From the UHGV virus genome UHGV-0354376: 13,577 nt of DNA. One strand, written 5' to 3'. Shown piece after piece: positions 4,439-13,323 of the stretch (positions are counted from its first letter, which is position 1; the number at the start of each line of letters is the position of its first letter). The stretch comes from a virus. The translations under genes and the position numbers were made by a program. Under the pieces are notes generated by a model. That model was given only the letters and a program-made list of their open reading frames with translations. It had not been told where the DNA came from and did not search any database.

Positions 4439-5149
4439 CTACAGTTTATTGTAAGCTATTGATTCATGGAGTAGAGCTTTACCCATGATATACAGTTGTT
4501 CCTGATTTTCTTCAGTTATATACCAGTCTTTGTACACTGGATTATCGGACAGCACTGCAAGCTGCAAGCCCTGCATTTGTAATCGCTTCACGTGGAAGTG
4601 TTGTCCGAAAACGAACGCATAAACACCGTCCACCTTGAAATTTCTTATCGAAATATCGAAAAACAACCTGTCACCAGACTGGATGGTTGGGCACATGCTG
4701 TCGCCATCTACAGTCATTACTTTAACGTCATCCTGAGAACGATTCCCGAAGAGTGAACGAGCGTGCTCAGTGGTGAACTCAATAGCGTGTAGAACCTCAA
4801 CAAACTCAGAAATCATGAAAGACCCTGGACCTGCACTCACAGTAAGATCGAGAACTTCTACACGATAAGTGTCGATATTGCGGGCGGGTACATCAATATC
4901 CATATTTGAGGTTGGGCCAAGACCATCCAACCATCCTCTGCTGATTTTCAAAGCATCTTCGATCTGCCGAGCCGCCTGTTCACCAATATTCCGCTTATTA
5001 GGTTTACCAACAGGGTAAAGCATCCGAGAGACAACAGTCGGATCAAGCCCTGCATTTTCAGCAAACTCTTTCTGGGTTTTATAGCGAGTTACCAACTCCT
5101 GAAGTTTGAGGCGTCGTAACTCGAAGATGTCAGGCGATTCAGTTTTCAT
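4439..5149 (-). CDS. CI-like prophage repressor (N-terminal HTH, C-terminal S24 LexA-like autopeptidase domain)
   Basis: 236 aa ORF with an N-terminal HTH-like region (QKEFAENAGLDPTVVSRM) and a C-terminal S24 peptidase signature (GDSM serine motif and a downstream Lys in HVKRL). It is divergent from a Cro-like gene across a 99 bp AT-rich region. The near-absence of an SD upstream of the ATG would fit a leaderless pRM-type transcript. Confidence 0.9.
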   Translation of the reverse strand: MKTESPDIFELRRLKLQELVTRYKTQKEFAENAGLDPTVVSRMLYPVGKPNKRNIGEQAARQIEDALKISRGWLDGLGPTSNMDIDVPARNIDTYRVEVLDLTVSAGPGSFMISEFVEVLHAIEFTTEHARSLFGNRSQDDVKVMTVDGDSMCPTIQSGDRLFFDISIRNFKVDGVYAFVFGQHFHVKRLQMQGLQLAVLSDNPVYKDWYITEENQEQLYIMGKALLHESIAYNKL

Positions 5150-5156
5150 AATTCCA

Positions 5157-5224
5157 TCTTACTTAAATTTACTTCAAGGTAAATGACCTGTGAGTATTGA
5201 CATGTATTTACTTAAAGGTATATT
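5157..5224. promoter_or_regulatory. Immunity switch region: candidate operator repeats overlapping a pR-like promoter (-35 TTGACA 5197-5202, 16 bp spacer, -10 TATATT 5219-5224)
   Basis: Three copies of TTACTT(A/C)AA, at about 5159, 5169 and 5208. Two form imperfect palindromes: TTTAC-TTCAAG-GTAAA (5168-5183) and TTTAC-TTAAAG-GTATA (5207-5222). The 11-mer ACCTGTGAGTA (5186-5196) sits immediately before the consensus -35. The cro ATG follows at 5249 with an AGGAGG RBS. Confidence 0.45.
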
Positions 5225-6471: not shown

Positions 6472-6760
6472 AGCCGATATCGTATTTGATTACAAATTTA
6501 ACAGCCCATTACATCGTTTAATCATGTTGTTTATCCAAGTAAGCGGAAGCGGTGATGGGGGTAAAGAAAAGCTTATTTCAGATAAGAGATTTACAGACAT
6601 ATGCTGTTGCAGCTCAGCAGATTTTATAAGCGCTATCAATTACCTGACCGAAAACGGCTTTCTTTTGAGAAAAAATTACGGGATGCAGTTCGGTGAGGCT
6701 ACCAGCGGTTATGTCATTACTGTGCCGGATTGGTTAAGGAAGGAACCATGGGAACATTGA
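6464..6760 (+). CDS. Hypothetical protein (98 aa), AT-rich gene
   Basis: ATG with an AAGGAAAAG RBS. Its stop overlaps the start region of the replication gene. Codon usage is noticeably more AT-rich than neighbouring genes (TTA, ATA, AGA codons). A possible winged-helix-like segment (FISAINYLTENGFLLRK) is present. Confidence 0.55.
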   Translation: MTEADIVFDYKFNSPLHRLIMLFIQVSGSGDGGKEKLISDKRFTDICCCSSADFISAINYLTENGFLLRKNYGMQFGEATSGYVITVPDWLRKEPWEH

Positions 6761-7722
6761 TTCAGTTACTTGATCGTCCAATTGCTTACAACCCGGCTTT
6801 TGCCAAGCTGAGAGTTGGCAAAGTTAAAGCTGGCCCGGTTGCGGCTGTTTTTCTTTCGCAGATGGTCTACTGGCATAACCGTATGGATGGCGGCTGGATG
6901 TATAAGACCCAGGCAGATATTGCCAGCGAGACTGCATTAACCCGTGATGAACAGGAAACGGCTCGCAAACGTCTGATACAGCTTGGCGTTCTGGAAGAAG
7001 ATCGCCGTGGTGTCCCAGCAACGATGCACTACCGCATTAATCCTGAACGCCTGGAAGCGCTGCTGCTCGAAACTACGCAGTCAGTGAAGAAGGCCGCACC
7101 TCAGAACAAAACCAGATTGCGGAACATCCAGAATGTGGAAATGCCGCAATCTGGATTGGTGCAGTCCCGCAAACTAGATTGCGGTGATTCCACAAACAAG
7201 GATGTGGATACCCCGCAAACAAGTATGGGACAACCCAACGAACAAGCCTGCGGGGATCCCACAAACTTTCATACAGGAGATTACACAGAGAATACTCAGG
7301 AGAGTACACAGGATAAAAAAACTTATTGTCCGGTTGCGGCGCAACCAGACCCTGAAGTTGTGATTACCGACCAGGCAATTTTGGTTCTGACCCATTTGAA
7401 CCAGATCAGCGGATCCAGGTATCAGAAATCCAAAACATCCCTGGAGAATATCCGCGCCCGACTGCGTGAGGGATACAGCGTTGCAGACCTGCAACTGGTT
7501 ATCGACCTGAAGCATGAGCACTGGCACGAGAACGACGAGCAGTACCAGTACATGCGCCCGGAAACGCTGTTCGGCCCGAAGAAATTCGAGAGCTATCTGC
7601 AAAGCGCTACCCGCTGGGAGCAGAAGGGACGGCCTAAACGCGCTGACTGGGGGGCGAAAAAGCGCGATGTGATGACTTTTGGTCCGGTTGATACAACGAT
7701 TCCTGCGGGGTTCAGAGGATGA
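6748..7722 (+). CDS. Phage replication initiation protein (O-like; N-terminal winged-helix domain, low-complexity linker, conserved phage C-terminal domain)
   Basis: The ATG at 6748 is preceded by AAGGAAGG (the ORF track starts at 6730). The C-terminal region (ILVLTHLNQISGSRYQKSKTSLENIRARLREGYSVADLQLVIDLKHEHW...) resembles, from memory, the conserved phage replication-protein C-terminal domain. The gene contains an internal iteron-like repeat cluster. Confidence 0.75.
   Translation: MGTLIQLLDRPIAYNPAFAKLRVGKVKAGPVAAVFLSQMVYWHNRMDGGWMYKTQADIASETALTRDEQETARKRLIQLGVLEEDRRGVPATMHYRINPERLEALLLETTQSVKKAAPQNKTRLRNIQNVEMPQSGLVQSRKLDCGDSTNKDVDTPQTSMGQPNEQACGDPTNFHTGDYTENTQESTQDKKTYCPVAAQPDPEVVITDQAILVLTHLNQISGSRYQKSKTSLENIRARLREGYSVADLQLVIDLKHEHWHENDEQYQYMRPETLFGPKKFESYLQSATRWEQKGRPKRADWGAKKRDVMTFGPVDTTIPAGFRG
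7114..7266. repeat. Iteron-like repeat cluster inside the replication gene (candidate phage origin)
   Basis: At least seven copies of an 8-9 bp motif in both orientations: AGATTGCGG at 7114-7122, its exact reverse complement CCGCAATCT at 7144-7152, the perfect inverted repeat CCGCAA-N6-TTGCGG at 7167-7184, CCGCAAAC again at about 7213, and CCACAAAC at about 7191 and 7259. A short A-rich tract follows (about 7313-7321). Analogous to the lambda ori iterons within gene O. Confidence 0.45.
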
Positions 7723-8600
7723 CGTTAAACAAATATTGCCAGGCGCTGGCGGCACTACGTAGCCATCCAGCCCACGAATTGAAAGAAGTTGGTGATCAGT
7801 GGCGGACACCGGATCTGCTTTTCTGGGGTATCAACGCGCTATTTGGGCCATTAGTTCTGGACTTGTTTGCTGACGACGACAACGCGAAGTGCCCGGCATG
7901 GTACACCGCCGAAGATAATGCGCTGACGCAGGACTGGTCTGAACGTCTTACAGAACTGGGTGGCGCTGGTTATGGCAACCCACCGTATAGCCGTTCGCAG
8001 TATCACGAGAAACAGGCGATCACCGGCATGACGCACATCATGAACTACGCAGCAACCCAGCGCGAAAAGGGCGGGCGTTATGTATTTCTGATAAAAGCTG
8101 CGCCGAGCGAAACGTGGTGGCCGGAAGATGCCGATCACATCGTATTCATCCGTGGGCGCATTGGGTTCGATCTGCCTGTGTGGTTTATACCTGCTGACGA
8201 AAAACAGAAGCCCACCAGCGCGTTTTTTGCCGGTGCCATAGCTGTATTCGATAAGTCATGGCGGGGTGAGCGGTTCAGCTATATCAACCGCACAGAACTG
8301 GAGGAAAAAGGGCGGGCATTTATGGCTTTGGCTCAATTCGCCGTTGGTAAAGAGCAAACAATCGCAATGCAGGCAGCCAGGGAACCAGCAGCAACACCGG
8401 AAGCTGAGTCACGTATCTGGCCTCTCGAGGTTGGTCTGGTGTTCAACCAGGTGGAAGGCGTTGACGTATTGAGTGAGGCTCAGCAGAACAAGCTGAAAGC
8501 CAACATCAATCAACTCTGGCTGGAACGAACGGCCACCAGCGAAATCATCACAATTGCGCGTGGTCTTGTCGGCAGCATGCAGGGGGTAACCCATGCGTGA
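7719..8600 (+). CDS. Phage DNA N6-adenine methyltransferase (Dam family)
   Basis: 293 aa ORF with the N6-adenine MTase catalytic motif NPPY (GYGNPPYSRS) and N-terminal conserved residues (WRTPDLLF, DLFADDDN) as in phage Dam-family enzymes. Start and stop overlap the neighbouring genes (ATGA). Confidence 0.9.
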   Translation: MTLNKYCQALAALRSHPAHELKEVGDQWRTPDLLFWGINALFGPLVLDLFADDDNAKCPAWYTAEDNALTQDWSERLTELGGAGYGNPPYSRSQYHEKQAITGMTHIMNYAATQREKGGRYVFLIKAAPSETWWPEDADHIVFIRGRIGFDLPVWFIPADEKQKPTSAFFAGAIAVFDKSWRGERFSYINRTELEEKGRAFMALAQFAVGKEQTIAMQAAREPAATPEAESRIWPLEVGLVFNQVEGVDVLSEAQQNKLKANINQLWLERTATSEIITIARGLVGSMQGVTHA

Positions 8601-10590
8601 GATTATCGTTGATAACTTTGCTGGTGGCGGTGGCGCATCAACGGGTATTGAACTGGCAATAGGGCGCAGCGTGGATATTGCGATCAACCACGACGAAAAC
8701 GCCATTGCGATGCACAAGACGAACCACCCGGACACACTGCATTATTGTGAATCCGTATTTGACGTGGATCCGGTAGCCGCCACCGGCGGCAATCCTGTTG
8801 GCCTGGCATGGTTTAGCCCGGACTGCCGACACTTCTCAAAGGCCAAAGGCGCAAAGCCTGTGAAAAAAGAGATACGAGGTCTGGCCTGGATTGTTCTGCG
8901 ATGGGCACTGGCGAAGCGACCGCGCGTGATGATGCTGGAGAACGTGGAAGAGTTCAAAACCTGGGGACCGTTAATTGACATCCCGCCTAAACCTGATTTG
9001 TCGGAAGCCCTTATAGGGGATTTTATTGGCCCAGTTTACCCTGGCAATAGTCGCCCAGACCCTGCCCGCGCTGGCGAAACATTCAATGCTTTTGTCGGTA
9101 TGCTTTCCACTGGCATTCCTGCCGATCACTCGGCACTGTCAGAGGTTTGTGAGTTTCTGTCTATTGAAAGAGGTAGCGAGCAGGCGCAACAGCTGGTGGA
9201 TGGGCTTGGATATGATGTTGATTATCGCGAACTACGCGCGTGTGATTACGGCGCGCCGACGATCCGCAAACGCTTCTTCATGGTTATGCGCTGCGATGGC
9301 TGCCCAATCCAGTGGCCTGCTGTTACCCATGGGGATCCTAAGTCTCTGGAGGTGCAGAGCGGCAGGCTGATGCCATGGCGTACCGCTGCGGAATGTATCG
9401 ACTGGAATGTTCCGGCTCTGTCCATCTTCGACCGCAAAAAACCGCTGGCAGAGAACACTCTGAAGCGGATCGCACGCGGCATACAGCGCTTTGTTATCGA
9501 AAGTGCGTCGCCGTTTATCGTGAAGTGCAACCACACGAGCTCAAAAAATGCGTATGACGCTTTTCGCGGACAGTCACTGAATGAGCCATTACAGACCATT
9601 ACTAAAAAACTCGGCTACGCGTTAGCCGTTCCACACCTTACAAAATTCCGCACTGGCGCAACCGGGCAGCCCGTTACCGAACCTGTTCCGACGGTAACCG
9701 CTGGCACGTCAAAACGCCCGGGCGGGAACGGGCATGCTCTCGGGATTGTTGAGGCTGCATTGACACCATTCCTGGCGGGTAATGGTGGTAGTGAATACCA
9801 GGCTAAACCGCGCCCGCTGAATAAACCTGCTCATACCATTCTGAAGCAATCCCGAGCCTGTCTTGTTGCGCCAGTGATAGCCCGCCAGTTTGGGGCCAGC
9901 GTCGGCCACCGTGCAGACGAACCGAGCGCAACCATCACCGCTGGTGGTGGCGGTAAATCTCAACTGGTAACGCCTACGCTGATCCAGATGGGTTATGGCG
10001 AACGACCTGGACAAGAACCGCGTGTGCTGCGGCTGGATAACCCGCTGGGGACCGTTACTGCAGGCGGAAATAAATTTGCGACGGTGAGCGCATTCCTGGC
10101 GAAACACTACGGCGGTAACTATACGGGGCCGGGTGTCAGTATGGATGAACCCGCGCATTCAGTGACCACTGTCGACCATCATGCGGTAGTTGCCTCTCAT
10201 CTGGTGAAACTGCGTGGAACATGCCGCGACGGGCAACGCCTTGATGTGCCAATGCCAACAATCACTGCTGGTGGCCAACACGTGGGTGAGGTACGCACAT
10301 TTCTCGAGACGTATTGCGGGGAAAGTGACGATGAATGGCTGGTAACGATCGATGGGGTTAAATACCAGATCGTTGATATCGGAATGCGCATGTTGCAGCC
10401 GCATGAACTCTACAAAGCGCAGGGCTTCCCGGATGGATACGTTATTGATCAGGACTACCGTGGAAATCGCTATGCAAAAGATAAGCAGGTAGCCCGCTGC
10501 GGTAATGCGGTACCACCACCATTCGCCCGGGCGCTGGTTGAGGCAAATCTTCCGGAACTGTGTGCAGTGCAACAGCAGGAGGTGGCATGA
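8593..10590 (+). CDS. DNA cytosine-5 methyltransferase, large (665 aa), with an extended variable/target-recognition region
   Basis: C5-MTase motifs are visible: motif I FAGGGG, the catalytic Cys region SPDCRHFS, motif VI MLENVEEF (ENV), and a motif VIII-like PTIRKRFFMV. AGGGGG RBS 6 nt upstream. Stop overlaps the rusA start. Confidence 0.85.
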   Translation: MREIIVDNFAGGGGASTGIELAIGRSVDIAINHDENAIAMHKTNHPDTLHYCESVFDVDPVAATGGNPVGLAWFSPDCRHFSKAKGAKPVKKEIRGLAWIVLRWALAKRPRVMMLENVEEFKTWGPLIDIPPKPDLSEALIGDFIGPVYPGNSRPDPARAGETFNAFVGMLSTGIPADHSALSEVCEFLSIERGSEQAQQLVDGLGYDVDYRELRACDYGAPTIRKRFFMVMRCDGCPIQWPAVTHGDPKSLEVQSGRLMPWRTAAECIDWNVPALSIFDRKKPLAENTLKRIARGIQRFVIESASPFIVKCNHTSSKNAYDAFRGQSLNEPLQTITKKLGYALAVPHLTKFRTGATGQPVTEPVPTVTAGTSKRPGGNGHALGIVEAALTPFLAGNGGSEYQAKPRPLNKPAHTILKQSRACLVAPVIARQFGASVGHRADEPSATITAGGGGKSQLVTPTLIQMGYGERPGQEPRVLRLDNPLGTVTAGGNKFATVSAFLAKHYGGNYTGPGVSMDEPAHSVTTVDHHAVVASHLVKLRGTCRDGQRLDVPMPTITAGGQHVGEVRTFLETYCGESDDEWLVTIDGVKYQIVDIGMRMLQPHELYKAQGFPDGYVIDQDYRGNRYAKDKQVARCGNAVPPPFARALVEANLPELCAVQQQEVA

Positions 10591-10973
10591 AACTTGTGCT
10601 CCCGTTCCCTCCGAGCGTGAACACTTACTGGCGCGCCCCTAACAAGGGGCCGCTGGCCGGTCGTCACCTCATTAGCGCTGATGGTCGTAAATACCAGAGC
10701 GCTGCCTGCGTGGCGATCATTGAGCAATTACGACGTCTCCCGAAGCCATCGACTGAACTGGCAGCGGTAGAAATCACTCTGTACCCGCCGGATGCGCGCC
10801 GTCGGGATATCGATAATTACAACAAAGCCCTGTTTGACGCGCTGACGCATGCGGGTGTCTGGGAAGACGACAGCCAGATTAAGCGCATGCTGGTGGAATG
10901 GGGACCCGTTGTGCCGAAAGGTCGGGTAGAGATAACGATCAGCAGATATGAACCGGCGGGTGCAGCCGCCTGA
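10587..10973 (+). CDS. rusA: Holliday junction resolvase RusA
   Basis: The ATG at 10587 with an AGGAGGTGG RBS gives a 128 aa product. Clear similarity to E. coli RusA as recalled (PPSVNTYWR, RRRDIDNYNKALFDALT, GVWEDDSQ). Confidence 0.9.
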   Translation: MKLVLPFPPSVNTYWRAPNKGPLAGRHLISADGRKYQSAACVAIIEQLRRLPKPSTELAAVEITLYPPDARRRDIDNYNKALFDALTHAGVWEDDSQIKRMLVEWGPVVPKGRVEITISRYEPAGAAA

Positions 10974-10986
10974 TATGGAGAAAAGT

Positions 10987-11670
10987 ATGAGCCAATTAGC
11001 AACAACAGCATTAACCATGTCCAGCAGCGATATTGCTGAGCTGGTGGAATCACGACATGACCATGTTAAACGGTCCATTGAACGCCTGGCAGAGCGCGGT
11101 GTTATTGAACTCCCCCCAATGGGGGAAGTTAAAAATCACCTCAATCAGTCGGTATCGGTTTATCTGATAGGGAAGCGGGACAGTTATATCGTTGTCGCGC
11201 AGCTGTCGCCGGAGTTTACCGCGCGTCTGGTTGATCGCTGGCAGGAGCTTGAGCAGGCACAGCAGCAGACGATTCCTCAATCATTCTCTGAAGCCCTACG
11301 TCTTGCAGCTGACCTTGCAGAACAAAAACAGCAGTTGACTAACGAACTGGCTGCCGCGGCGCCGAAGGTAGCGTTTGTTGATCGGTACTGTACAGCCAGT
11401 GGGTCAATGTCATTCCGCCAGGTGGCAAAACTGCTTAAGGCCAAAGAGCCAGATCTGCGGTTATTCCTCCTTGAGAACGACATCATGTATCGCCTTGGCG
11501 GAACGATGACTCCACGGCATCAGCATATTGATGCGGGCCGTTTTGAAGTGAAAACCGGCACATCCGTGACCTCAAATCATGCATTCAGCCAGGCACGTTT
11601 CACGGCGAAAGGCGTGCGCTGGATTGGTGGACTGTGGGCAGAACACATTGTCAGGGGGCAGGTCGCGTGA
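10987..11670 (+). CDS. Phage antirepressor-like protein (Rha-like N-terminal region, KilAC/Ant-like C-terminal domain)
   Basis: The ATG at 10987 with GGAG 6 nt upstream gives 227 aa. The N-terminal region (SSSDIAELVESRHDHVKRSIERL) resembles Rha-type regulators and the C-terminal region (FRQVAKLL...MYRLGG) the antirepressor KilAC-type domain. Family calls are from memory. Confidence 0.7.
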   Translation: MSQLATTALTMSSSDIAELVESRHDHVKRSIERLAERGVIELPPMGEVKNHLNQSVSVYLIGKRDSYIVVAQLSPEFTARLVDRWQELEQAQQQTIPQSFSEALRLAADLAEQKQQLTNELAAAAPKVAFVDRYCTASGSMSFRQVAKLLKAKEPDLRLFLLENDIMYRLGGTMTPRHQHIDAGRFEVKTGTSVTSNHAFSQARFTAKGVRWIGGLWAEHIVRGQVA

Positions 11671-12656
11671 GGGCTTTGTTAACTCCTGAAGTAGCCCATC
11701 GTATGGGGATTGTGTTGTTCCGTCCCGGTGCGGAACTGATGCACATCTTCATGCGCGGTCGCGTTCTGCTAGAGCCTGAACCAGAAGAAATGGCGTCATT
11801 CAGTACCGGGGCTGTTCCTGCAGCCATTCAGCCGCTGGCTGAGGATCCGGTAATGCGGCAGGTCTTCGAGAATGAGCGGGTTATTCATCGCGCCGGTGGG
11901 CTGGCTTCCCTCGAGCAGTGGCTGAGTTCAAGATTTGAATGCCAGTGGCCACATTCATCGTGGCATGACAAGAACTTCACAACAATGCGGCACCCACCAG
12001 GAAGCATTCATCTGTGCTGGCATTGCGATCACACTTTGTCCGGGCAGCATACTAAGCAGCTTGCAGGTATAGCGGCAGGAAACTTGGTATCCTGGATTCT
12101 GGAAGTTATTCGTCGCGATTCTGGTTTTCCCGAGTCGCATGTACTGACGTTGCCGGAACTGTGCTGGTGGATGGTCAGAAACGACCTGGCTGATGTTATT
12201 CCGGAAAGCGTTGCGCACAAAGGGCTGCGCCTTCCGGATGAGAACATCCGCTCTGTCATGAGGGAAAGCGACATTGTGCCTTCAGCGTCTGCAACCAGCC
12301 TCGTGCAGGAGAAGGCGAAGAAGATCCTCACGCTCTCTGTTGATCCGGAGTCTCCAGAATCTTTCATGCTCAGACCAAAACGTCGTCGCTGGATAAATGA
12401 GACGTACACCCGCTGGGTTAAAACACAGCCCTGTGAGTGTTGCCGACGGCCAGCAGACGACCCCCACCACATGATTGGCCACGGGCAGGGTGGAATGGGT
12501 ACAAAAGCACACGACCTGTTTGTGATACCGCTGTGCAGAGCACATCACAACGAGTTGCATGCTGATCCCGTGGCATTTGAAGCGAAATACGATGACCAAT
12601 TGGTGTTGGTTTTTCGAGTTATAGATCGAGCGCTGGCAATTGGCGTGCTGGCATAA
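11634..12656 (+). CDS. DUF968-like prophage protein with a C-terminal Cys/His cluster; start uncertain
   Basis: Long ORF in the position usually occupied by DUF968/YdfU-like genes upstream of Q in enterobacterial lambdoid prophages. C-terminal cluster CECCRRPADDPHHM...CRAHHNELH. Candidate starts are the GTG at 11634, the GTG at 11667 (overlapping the upstream stop) and the ATG at 11703. Confidence 0.6.
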   Translation: MGRTHCQGAGRVRALLTPEVAHRMGIVLFRPGAELMHIFMRGRVLLEPEPEEMASFSTGAVPAAIQPLAEDPVMRQVFENERVIHRAGGLASLEQWLSSRFECQWPHSSWHDKNFTTMRHPPGSIHLCWHCDHTLSGQHTKQLAGIAAGNLVSWILEVIRRDSGFPESHVLTLPELCWWMVRNDLADVIPESVAHKGLRLPDENIRSVMRESDIVPSASATSLVQEKAKKILTLSVDPESPESFMLRPKRRRWINETYTRWVKTQPCECCRRPADDPHHMIGHGQGGMGTKAHDLFVIPLCRAHHNELHADPVAFEAKYDDQLVLVFRVIDRALAIGVLA

Positions 12657-13251: not shown

Positions 13252-13301
13252 TGTGATAAGCTCGGGACGTTAAAGCGAACTGAGCAACAGAACAAATAGT
13301 A

Positions 13302-13323
13302 ACCCGCCGCTGTGCGGGTTTTT
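13302..13323 (+). terminator. Rho-independent terminator (tR'-like)
   Basis: 6 bp stem ACCCGC/GCGGGT with a 6 nt loop (CGCTGT), followed by TTTTTGCGTTTC. It lies about 50 nt downstream of the candidate late promoter. Confidence 0.55.

Follow-up and report, generated by a model that had tools for sequence, protein, structure and literature searches.

Phages of Bacillus are known to encode C5-cytosine DNA methyltransferases that array several target recognition domains (TRDs) in one polypeptide (PMC12707154; PMC8936443). We retrieved and aligned four of these enzymes, M.SPRI, M.Phi3TI, M.Rho11sI and M.H2I, and found that their cores are near-identical, the differences consisting of whole cassettes of 33-55 amino acids (aa) with a SPT[IL]TT, ATTLTS or HTLSA core. 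Here we compare with them a locus of the virus genome UHGV-0354376, analyzed as a stretch of 13,577 nucleotides (nt; hereafter the window) that corresponds to the immunity and early-right region of a lambdoid enterobacterial prophage. An earlier note on this sequence had recognized two tandem methyltransferase genes at 7719-10590, and profile searches agree with it: the first open reading frame (ORF; 7719-8600, 293 aa) matches PF05869 and TIGR01712 and encodes a phage Dam-type N6-adenine DNA methyltransferase, while the second (8593-10590, 665 aa) matches PF00145 and encodes a C5-cytosine DNA methyltransferase, abbreviated below as the C5 methylase (all features lie on the plus strand unless stated otherwise). 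From comparative sequence analysis, we consider it probable that the two genes form an orphan module in which the C5 methylase would be a multispecific anti-restriction enzyme made only in lytic growth.

The feature that carries this proposal lies between motifs VIII and IX of the C5 methylase, which are separated by about 370 aa. The extra region of roughly 300 aa suspected previously is thus real, and its residues 311-572 (9523-10308) are organized as seven tandem units of 32-43 aa, each built from a P-x-x-[TS]-[IV]-[TL] core and a short hydrophobic strand after it, often with a Gly-rich loop in between. Listed with the bit scores of a hidden Markov model (HMM) of the unit, these are U0 (aa 311-347, 9523-9633; core PLQTIT followed by the strand ALAVP; 16.8 bits), U1 (aa 348-390, 9634-9762; core PVPTVTAG; 7.6 bits), U2 (aa 391-427, 9763-9873; core PAHTIL; 9.9 bits), U3 (aa 428-459, 9874-9969; core PSATITAGGGG, resembling IAITLSAYGGG at positions 247-257 of M.HhaI; 9.4 bits), U4 (aa 460-499, 9970-10089; core PLGTVTAGG; 17.0 bits), U5 (aa 500-536, 10090-10200; core PAHSVTT; 23.2 bits) and U6 (aa 537-572, 10201-10308; core PMPTITAGG; 19.9 bits). 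Cores of the pattern P..[TS][IVL][TSLK] occur seven times against 0.23 expected, a number reached in 0 of 20,000 shuffles. The HMM, which was built from distant family members only, gives the seven units 7.6-23.2 bits versus a maximum of 5.3 in 1,000 shuffles, a signal that arises partly by construction, since the units were first located with a regular expression. Self-comparison of the repeat region by BLASTP produced no off-diagonal matches and no direct repeats are present at the DNA level in the interval 9500-10400, indicating that the units are old and diverged and that the insertions and deletions described below do not derive from recent slippage.

The units behave as cassettes in natural alleles. 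In the alignment of eleven C5 proteins with 82-97% identity, the differences consist of clean, in-frame insertions and deletions of whole units: U1 is absent from P0101 and the protein of Citrobacter phage phiNP, U4 from P0004 and P0045, and both U2 and U4 from P0062, while P0024, P0089, P0106 and P0114 have extra units inserted immediately before U6. The window protein and its 120 closest relatives together display 15 unit architectures, the commonest being the seven-unit form of the window (46 of 121), followed by the form that lacks U4 (36 of 121). The ratio of nonsynonymous to synonymous substitution (dN/dS) is 0.01-0.07 in the unit region, values no higher than those of the catalytic domain (0.04-0.17); such purifying selection implies that the units are functional. 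The suggestion that the extra region might confer multiple specificities thereby gains weight from comparative evidence, for its seven TRD-like units are gained and lost individually as are the cassettes of the Bacillus enzymes. We also considered that two unit sub-types might form obligatory pairs, an idea that we rejected given the natural alleles devoid of single units of either sub-type. Of note, synonymous divergence between the C5 gene of the window and that of locus L012 is 0.18 in the N-terminal catalytic part and 0.01-0.02 in the unit region and C-terminus; this unevenness points to recombination inside the gene and hence to a mosaic history.

The same repeats could instead constitute one composite DNA-binding domain in an enzyme of single, relaxed or short specificity, with the number of repeats tuning affinity or site length. 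Linker signatures in 390 proteins define 92 unit orders, which are mostly collinear patterns of presence and absence with few true inversions (for example, 80 vs. 7 for units A and B), and this largely conserved order also fits a composite domain. So do the core that all units share, the failure of AlphaFold2 to fold them separately, and the lack of significant similarity between any unit and a TRD of known specificity. Against this, every internal unit is dispensable in common natural alleles (U4 alone is missing in 36 of 121), some pairs of units occur in both orders, and the size and anatomy of the units match those of the cassettes in enzymes of proven multispecificity. We consequently regard a composite domain as rather unlikely, and a set of alternative recognition cassettes as the better description of the region.

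The remainder of the protein has the features of a C5-cytosine methylase. Its score against PF00145 is 72.8 bits (gathering threshold 22), while that against TIGR00675, the NCBIfam model of the dcm superfamily, is 53.6 and thus below the cut-off of 100.65. The conserved motifs follow one another in canonical order: motif I, FAGGGG, for binding S-adenosylmethionine (aa 9-14, 8617-8634); motif IV, SPDCRHFS, in which Cys78 is taken as the catalytic nucleophile and Asp77 stands for the canonical Pro (aa 75-82, 8815-8838); motif VI, ENV (aa 116-118, 8938-8946); motif VIII, PTIRKRFF, with the R-x-R element (aa 222-229, 9256-9279); the motif IX region with QGFP, RMLQPHELYKAQGFP (10387-10431); and motif X, GNAVPP (aa 637-642, 10501-10518), the Asn638 of which is invariant in a family alignment of 133 sequences. 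AlphaFold2 models most of residues 1-310 and 590-650 with a predicted local distance difference test (pLDDT) above 90, with dips at about residues 81-90 and 131-150. The top PDB matches of this model in Foldseek are 3g7u, DNMT1/MET1 and M.HaeIII, with probability 1.00 to 3g7u, DNMT1 and M.HaeIII, and at least 8,000 homologues are annotated as DNA cytosine methyltransferase. The product of the enzyme would be 5-methylcytosine in DNA. The closest homologues come from Salmonella enterica (94% identity), Citrobacter, Escherichia coli, Klebsiella and Enterobacter, and no identical copy of the window protein is on record. A separate peculiarity is the 21-aa insertion IDIPPKPDLSEALIGDFIGPVYPGNS in the catalytic domain between motifs VI and VIII (aa 128-153, 8974-9051; low pLDDT of 59-69), which some close homologues also have and others replace with a short loop of the LADEM type.

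The sequence SPDCRHFS in place of the canonical Pro-Cys-Gln had been noticed previously as non-canonical. We find it to be the conserved signature of a family rather than an aberration. In the alignment to PDB 3g7u, SPDC lies opposite GPPC, so that the Cys coincides with the catalytic Cys of 3g7u and is kept, while Pro is changed to Asp and Gln to Arg. Searching 1.84 billion cluster representatives (clusters at 50% identity) retrieved 8,354 relatives, 2,536 of them with expectation values below 1e-30. The best 150 relatives share 41-76% identity with the query, and nearly all of them show [FLAM]SPDC[KTR]H[FH]S as motif IV; conservation likewise extends to FAGGGG, ENV, the R-x-R element, QGFP and GN. 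Asp77 and His80 are near-invariant in the family, hereafter called the Asp-Cys family, and absent from canonical C5 methylases. This near-invariance identifies the SPDC motif as the hallmark of a separate subfamily maintained by selection, and not as a lesion. A catalytically dead or decaying protein might have been suspected from the missing Pro-Cys-Gln and the sub-threshold TIGR00675 score, but the variant motif persists across thousands of clusters together with all other motifs, and the dN/dS values of the catalytic domain given above are those of a constrained gene; we consider decay very improbable.

Members of the Asp-Cys family are found mainly in Proteobacteria, although it is not confined to Gram-negative hosts, for Bacillus phage phi105 (KY197768.1, 29224-30543) has an unannotated homologue in two pieces that together amount to about 440 aa and are 48% identical. 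Seven very long and distant members (P0131, P0164, P0197, P0205, P0206, P0229 and P0263; 931-1113 aa) are interrupted by an intein that has a Hint domain and mostly a LAGLIDADG domain as well. The intein splits motif IV precisely at the junction of Asp and Cys (SPD | CFPAGT...VVHN | CKHFS), so that the catalytic Cys of the methylase is the +1 residue directly after it. In protein splicing, this position supplies a nucleophile. Highly conserved sites are the usual location of inteins, and the insertion point is thus in keeping with an essential Cys.

The unusual loop also raises the question of whether members of this subfamily transfer some chemical group different from methyl, or modify single-stranded replication intermediates or RNA instead of duplex DNA. 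The near-invariant Asp77 and His80, foreign to canonical enzymes, would be compatible with this, and a precedent exists in CmoX, a phage DNA cytosine C5-carboxymethyltransferase in which Arg occupies the position of the motif X Asn (Asn304 in M.HhaI) and which adjoins and needs cmoA (PMC12783734). CmoX resembles the window enzyme in being a phage homologue of C5 methylases that serves self-protection, its structure (PDB 8yf3) is among the fold matches of our model, and enteric hosts make its cofactor, carboxy-S-adenosylmethionine (PMC12783734). However, Asn638 is invariant in the family alignment where CmoX has Arg, neither cmoA nor a ligase gene is found nearby in the window, the remaining C5 motifs are preserved, and the nearest folds belong to DNA methylases. 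We thus rejected the carboxymethyltransferase reading, and a different chemistry or substrate in general appears improbable to us; methylation of DNA cytosine remains the preferred activity.

The upstream gene encodes a catalytic domain (aa 19-199), a linker rich in Ala, Pro and Glu, and a small C-terminal domain. The catalytic domain matches PF05869 (expectation value 6e-44, 150 bits, cut-off 28.1, covering aa 19-199), the ORF scores 203 bits against TIGR01712, phage_N6A_met (cut-off 97), and along its full length it matches the PADLOC model MTase_II PDLC03332 with 531 bits. Scores above the cut-offs of both family models, together with an NPPY catalytic motif seen in the translation (aa 87-90, 7977-7988), place it in the phage Dam family. 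Its former designation as Dam-family therefore holds for the phage family PF05869 and not for the family of E. coli Dam. Some members of the PF05869 family methylate GATC. Our searches retrieved no solved or characterized relative of this ORF, and three candidates were discarded: M.EcoGII, which is of the beta class and not of PF05869; Hia5/Hin1523, which fall into the E. coli Dam-like group; and M.EcoGIX, which is carried by a plasmid.

What sets this ORF apart from the phage Dam family is its C-terminal domain, small and probably composed of three helices (aa 231-287, 8409-8579), which lies outside the Pfam Dam model, matches phrog_16025 and had escaped notice in the earlier note. Wherever an IMG/VR locus of the enterobacterial clade keeps upstream sequence, a homologue of this domain immediately precedes the C5 gene (45 loci detected in a first pass and 47 with an HMM, including L016-L057, L065, L077 and L092:2752-2920), and the ORF containing it either overlaps the C5 start or stops 0-12 nt short of it. 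A Dam domain precedes it in only 20 of those loci; elsewhere it forms a free-standing ORF of about 70-110 aa, or it is attached to fusions of PAPS (3'-phosphoadenosine 5'-phosphosulfate) reductase with Dam, to MT-A70 (PF05063) proteins, or to Methyltransf_11-like proteins. It is also fused to the N-terminus of the C5 methylase itself, namely in gp21 of Pectobacterium phage ZF40 and in 18 database proteins, from genera that include Pectobacterium, Dickeya and Rahnella. In the AlphaFold2 model of one such natural fusion, P0344, the domain forms three helices (pLDDT 89-96), which continue directly into strand 1 of the methylase. No copy of the domain was detected in more distant C5 relatives (50% identity or less), and a database search with the domain alone returned near-identical fragments only. 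This co-occurrence and the fusions indicate that the conserved unit is formed by the small domain and the C5 methylase, with an exchangeable methylase upstream; judged by gene neighborhoods, the domain appears to travel with the C5 gene rather than with Dam. It may well dock on the C5 enzyme and so tether the adenine methylase to the cytosine methylase.

We then consider the expression of the pair. The O-like replication gene (6730-7722) and Dam share an ATGA at 7719-7722, which joins the stop of the former to the start of the latter, and the Dam stop overlaps the C5 start by 8 nt, ATGCGTGA (8593-8600), with a Shine-Dalgarno-like GGGGG run ahead of it (8583-8587); the translational coupling suggested before is accordingly plausible. 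At its other end, the C5 stop overlaps the probable start of RusA in a further ATGA (10587-10590), and the same 4-nt overlap is present in relatives. For RusA (ORF 10560-10973), the listed start is GTG 10560, yet the ATG at 10587 is probably the true one, being preceded, as in relatives, by GGAGG at 10578-10582. The C5 gene is then followed by RusA, an Ant/Rha antirepressor, DUF968 and a Q-like antiterminator, while the window also contains a CII-like gene, and a cI-like S24 repressor gene occupies 4439-5149 on the minus strand.

The intergenic region between the repressor and cro contains a pR-like promoter candidate found by consensus scan (TTGACA-16-TATATT, 5197-5224, 11 of 12 matches), which is the probable source of transcription for both methylase genes. 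A scan of the plus strand showed no strong terminator between this candidate and the end of Q, and no promoter-like site of their own from 6525 to the methylase genes. The clearest terminator-like hairpin downstream of the promoter candidate lies at 13301-13320, just after the Q-like gene; it is bidirectional, and together with the promoter it fits a lambda-like pR operon followed by a late-promoter region. Since the replication gene, Dam, C5 and RusA are chained by overlaps, the methylases probably belong to the pR transcript. The pR-like promoter upstream of them faces a cI-type repressor gene, and by analogy with lambda both genes are expected to be repressed, and hence silent, in the lysogen. 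Comparable orphan methylases of prophages are silent in lysogens (PMC5778455; PMC3526280).

This organization bears on the view, advanced in part by the earlier note, that prophage expression of the pair in lysogens might regulate the host epigenetically. Activity in lysogens is known for some prophage methylases, reportedly including one of Staphylococcus aureus (PMC12435837), and we found no terminator that would exclude read-through from elsewhere. Set against this are the location of both genes inside an overlapping early chain, the absence of a plus-strand promoter-like site from 6525 on, the pR-like promoter facing the repressor gene, and the silence of the comparable methylases just cited. 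Effects on the host are accordingly not supported by our data, and we judge a regulatory role in lysogens hardly probable. It also follows that unchanged methylation in lysogens, formerly put forward as a refutation of anti-restriction, would not be valid as such, the genes being expected to be silent there.

No restriction endonuclease adjoins the two methylases, as had been noted, for the neighbors are ordinary lambdoid early genes and PADLOC reports no defense partner, with no match for DUF968 or Ant. The DUF968 protein (11634-12656) has a weak HNH-nuclease-like match (PF16784, 23.5 bits, below the cut-off); we did not retain it as a restriction partner, since it is a common gene of the lambdoid nin region and is without PADLOC match. 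The order rep-Dam-C5-RusA-Ant-DUF968-Q without endonuclease recurs in Salmonella contigs, metagenome contigs and Citrobacter phage phiNP, and in none of the related loci compared does an endonuclease lie next to the C5 gene. The anatomy of the enzymes and this comparative evidence thus favor a self-protective function of the orphan pair, as originally suggested. In related phages, a third orphan methylase is located just 3' of the Q gene, a position that the window stops short of. It is a PF01555 beta-class protein of 348 aa in one locus (L006:6111-7157) and a protein of 350 aa annotated as DNA-adenine methylase in phiNP (L001:9917-10969), both about as long as the non-specific M.EcoGII (349 aa).

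Taken together, these elements suggest the following sequence of events. The methylase pair, placed in a delayed-early (pR) operon, would remain unexpressed in the lysogen. Upon induction or infection it would be produced and would methylate replicating phage DNA, allowing the progeny to survive restriction in the next host. The first enzyme would contribute N6-methyladenine as a methylase of the phage Dam family, and the second would be an active C5 methylase of the Ser-Pro-Asp-Cys subfamily, the single catalytic core of which would use its seven cassettes alternatively and thereby methylate several unrelated sequences, in the manner of M.SPRI, M.Phi3TI, M.Rho11sI and M.H2I. The small domain would meanwhile dock the Dam protein onto the C5 enzyme.

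Several points weigh against this proposal, besides the partial circularity of the HMM signal and the conserved order of the units. When applied to the TRD cores of the Bacillus enzymes, the unit HMM finds the right places, but with -0.4 to -1.8 bits, inside the range of shuffled sequences. When the whole C5 protein or the last 164 aa of its phiNP homologue served as query, PDB sequence searches returned catalytic motifs only and never a unit; no unit therefore matches any solved structure in these searches. The pLDDT of AlphaFold2 is below 50 over most of the unit region in two independent models, which implies that the units may not be independently folded domains. We also found no methylation data for any member of the family. 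Finally, the timing of expression rests on the consensus promoter scan and on analogy with lambda.

A broader interpretation would extend the argument from this locus to the whole family. We consider it possible, though doubtful at present, that the Asp-Cys enzymes represent a very large, uncharacterized family of phage C5 methylases, mainly of Gram-negative hosts, with a swappable library of up to about ten cassettes per enzyme as judged by the count of core motifs, which would be far more multispecific than the Bacillus enzymes. In enterobacterial phages, they would in addition form complexes, held together by the three-helix domain, with an adenine methylase that can be exchanged (Dam, MT-A70 or a further class I enzyme), thus constituting a modular toolkit against many restriction systems at once. 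Should the cassettes be independent, thousands of enterobacterial prophages in Salmonella, Citrobacter, Klebsiella, Enterobacter, E. coli and Pectobacterium would carry one enzyme that pre-methylates their DNA against many restriction systems, with effects on host range, phage therapy and horizontal gene transfer. 5-Methylcytosine is poorly detected by single-molecule real-time sequencing (PMC8936443; PMC11954522), and because the genes are also probably silent in lysogens, routine methylome surveys are unlikely to have caught the activity. In our literature searches, the coverage of which is incomplete, we found no publication on the cassettes or the multispecificity of the Asp-Cys family. 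The natural alleles that differ by single cassettes offer a ready-made set for mapping cassette to target sequence, and the family is a possible source of new 5-methylcytosine specificities for epigenetic tools. In addition, the conserved Asp-Cys loop questions the supposedly essential nature of the Pro-Cys dipeptide, and the small domain, through its presumed docking, raises the possibility that methylases of adenine and of cytosine operate in physical contact.

The C5 methylase of the window can be compared with two groups of described enzymes. It shares fold and motif order with M.HhaI, M.HaeIII and 3g7u, the enzyme of prophage CP-933R, the latter being its closest match in both sequence and fold. 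Canonical C5 enzymes of this kind have a Pro-Cys-Gln loop and one recognition region in 320-380 aa, whereas the window protein has an Asp-Cys-Arg-His loop and seven units in 665 aa; the monospecific M.HhaI contains one unit-like element, IAITLSAYGGG, around Thr250-Leu251. With the multispecific Bacillus group it has in common that it is a phage-borne orphan C5 methylase with one catalytic core and cassettes between motifs VIII and IX. Cassettes measure 32-43 aa in the window protein and 33-55 aa in the Bacillus enzymes, and in both groups the T-[ILV]-[TS] core precedes a loop with Gly and then a hydrophobic strand, and close relatives vary by whole cassettes. We also compared the last unit of relatives, PLHTVTTNDRFGLV, with a Bacillus segment, EPAFTVNTIDRHGVA, but their resemblance is without statistical support and no shared target is claimed. 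The differences between the two groups concern motif IV, which is SPDC in the window family and SPCQ or FPCP in the Bacillus enzymes, and the number of units, namely seven in the window protein (with a core-motif count, taken as proxy for unit number, reaching 10 in representatives of the family) versus two to four differing cassettes plus one common to all four Bacillus enzymes. Moreover, the enterobacterial clade has a dedicated small partner domain and a second methylase upstream, unlike the Bacillus enzymes. Multiple specificity is proven for the latter and inferred for the window protein, which by analogy would work as the multispecific Bacillus enzymes do while standing outside their family.

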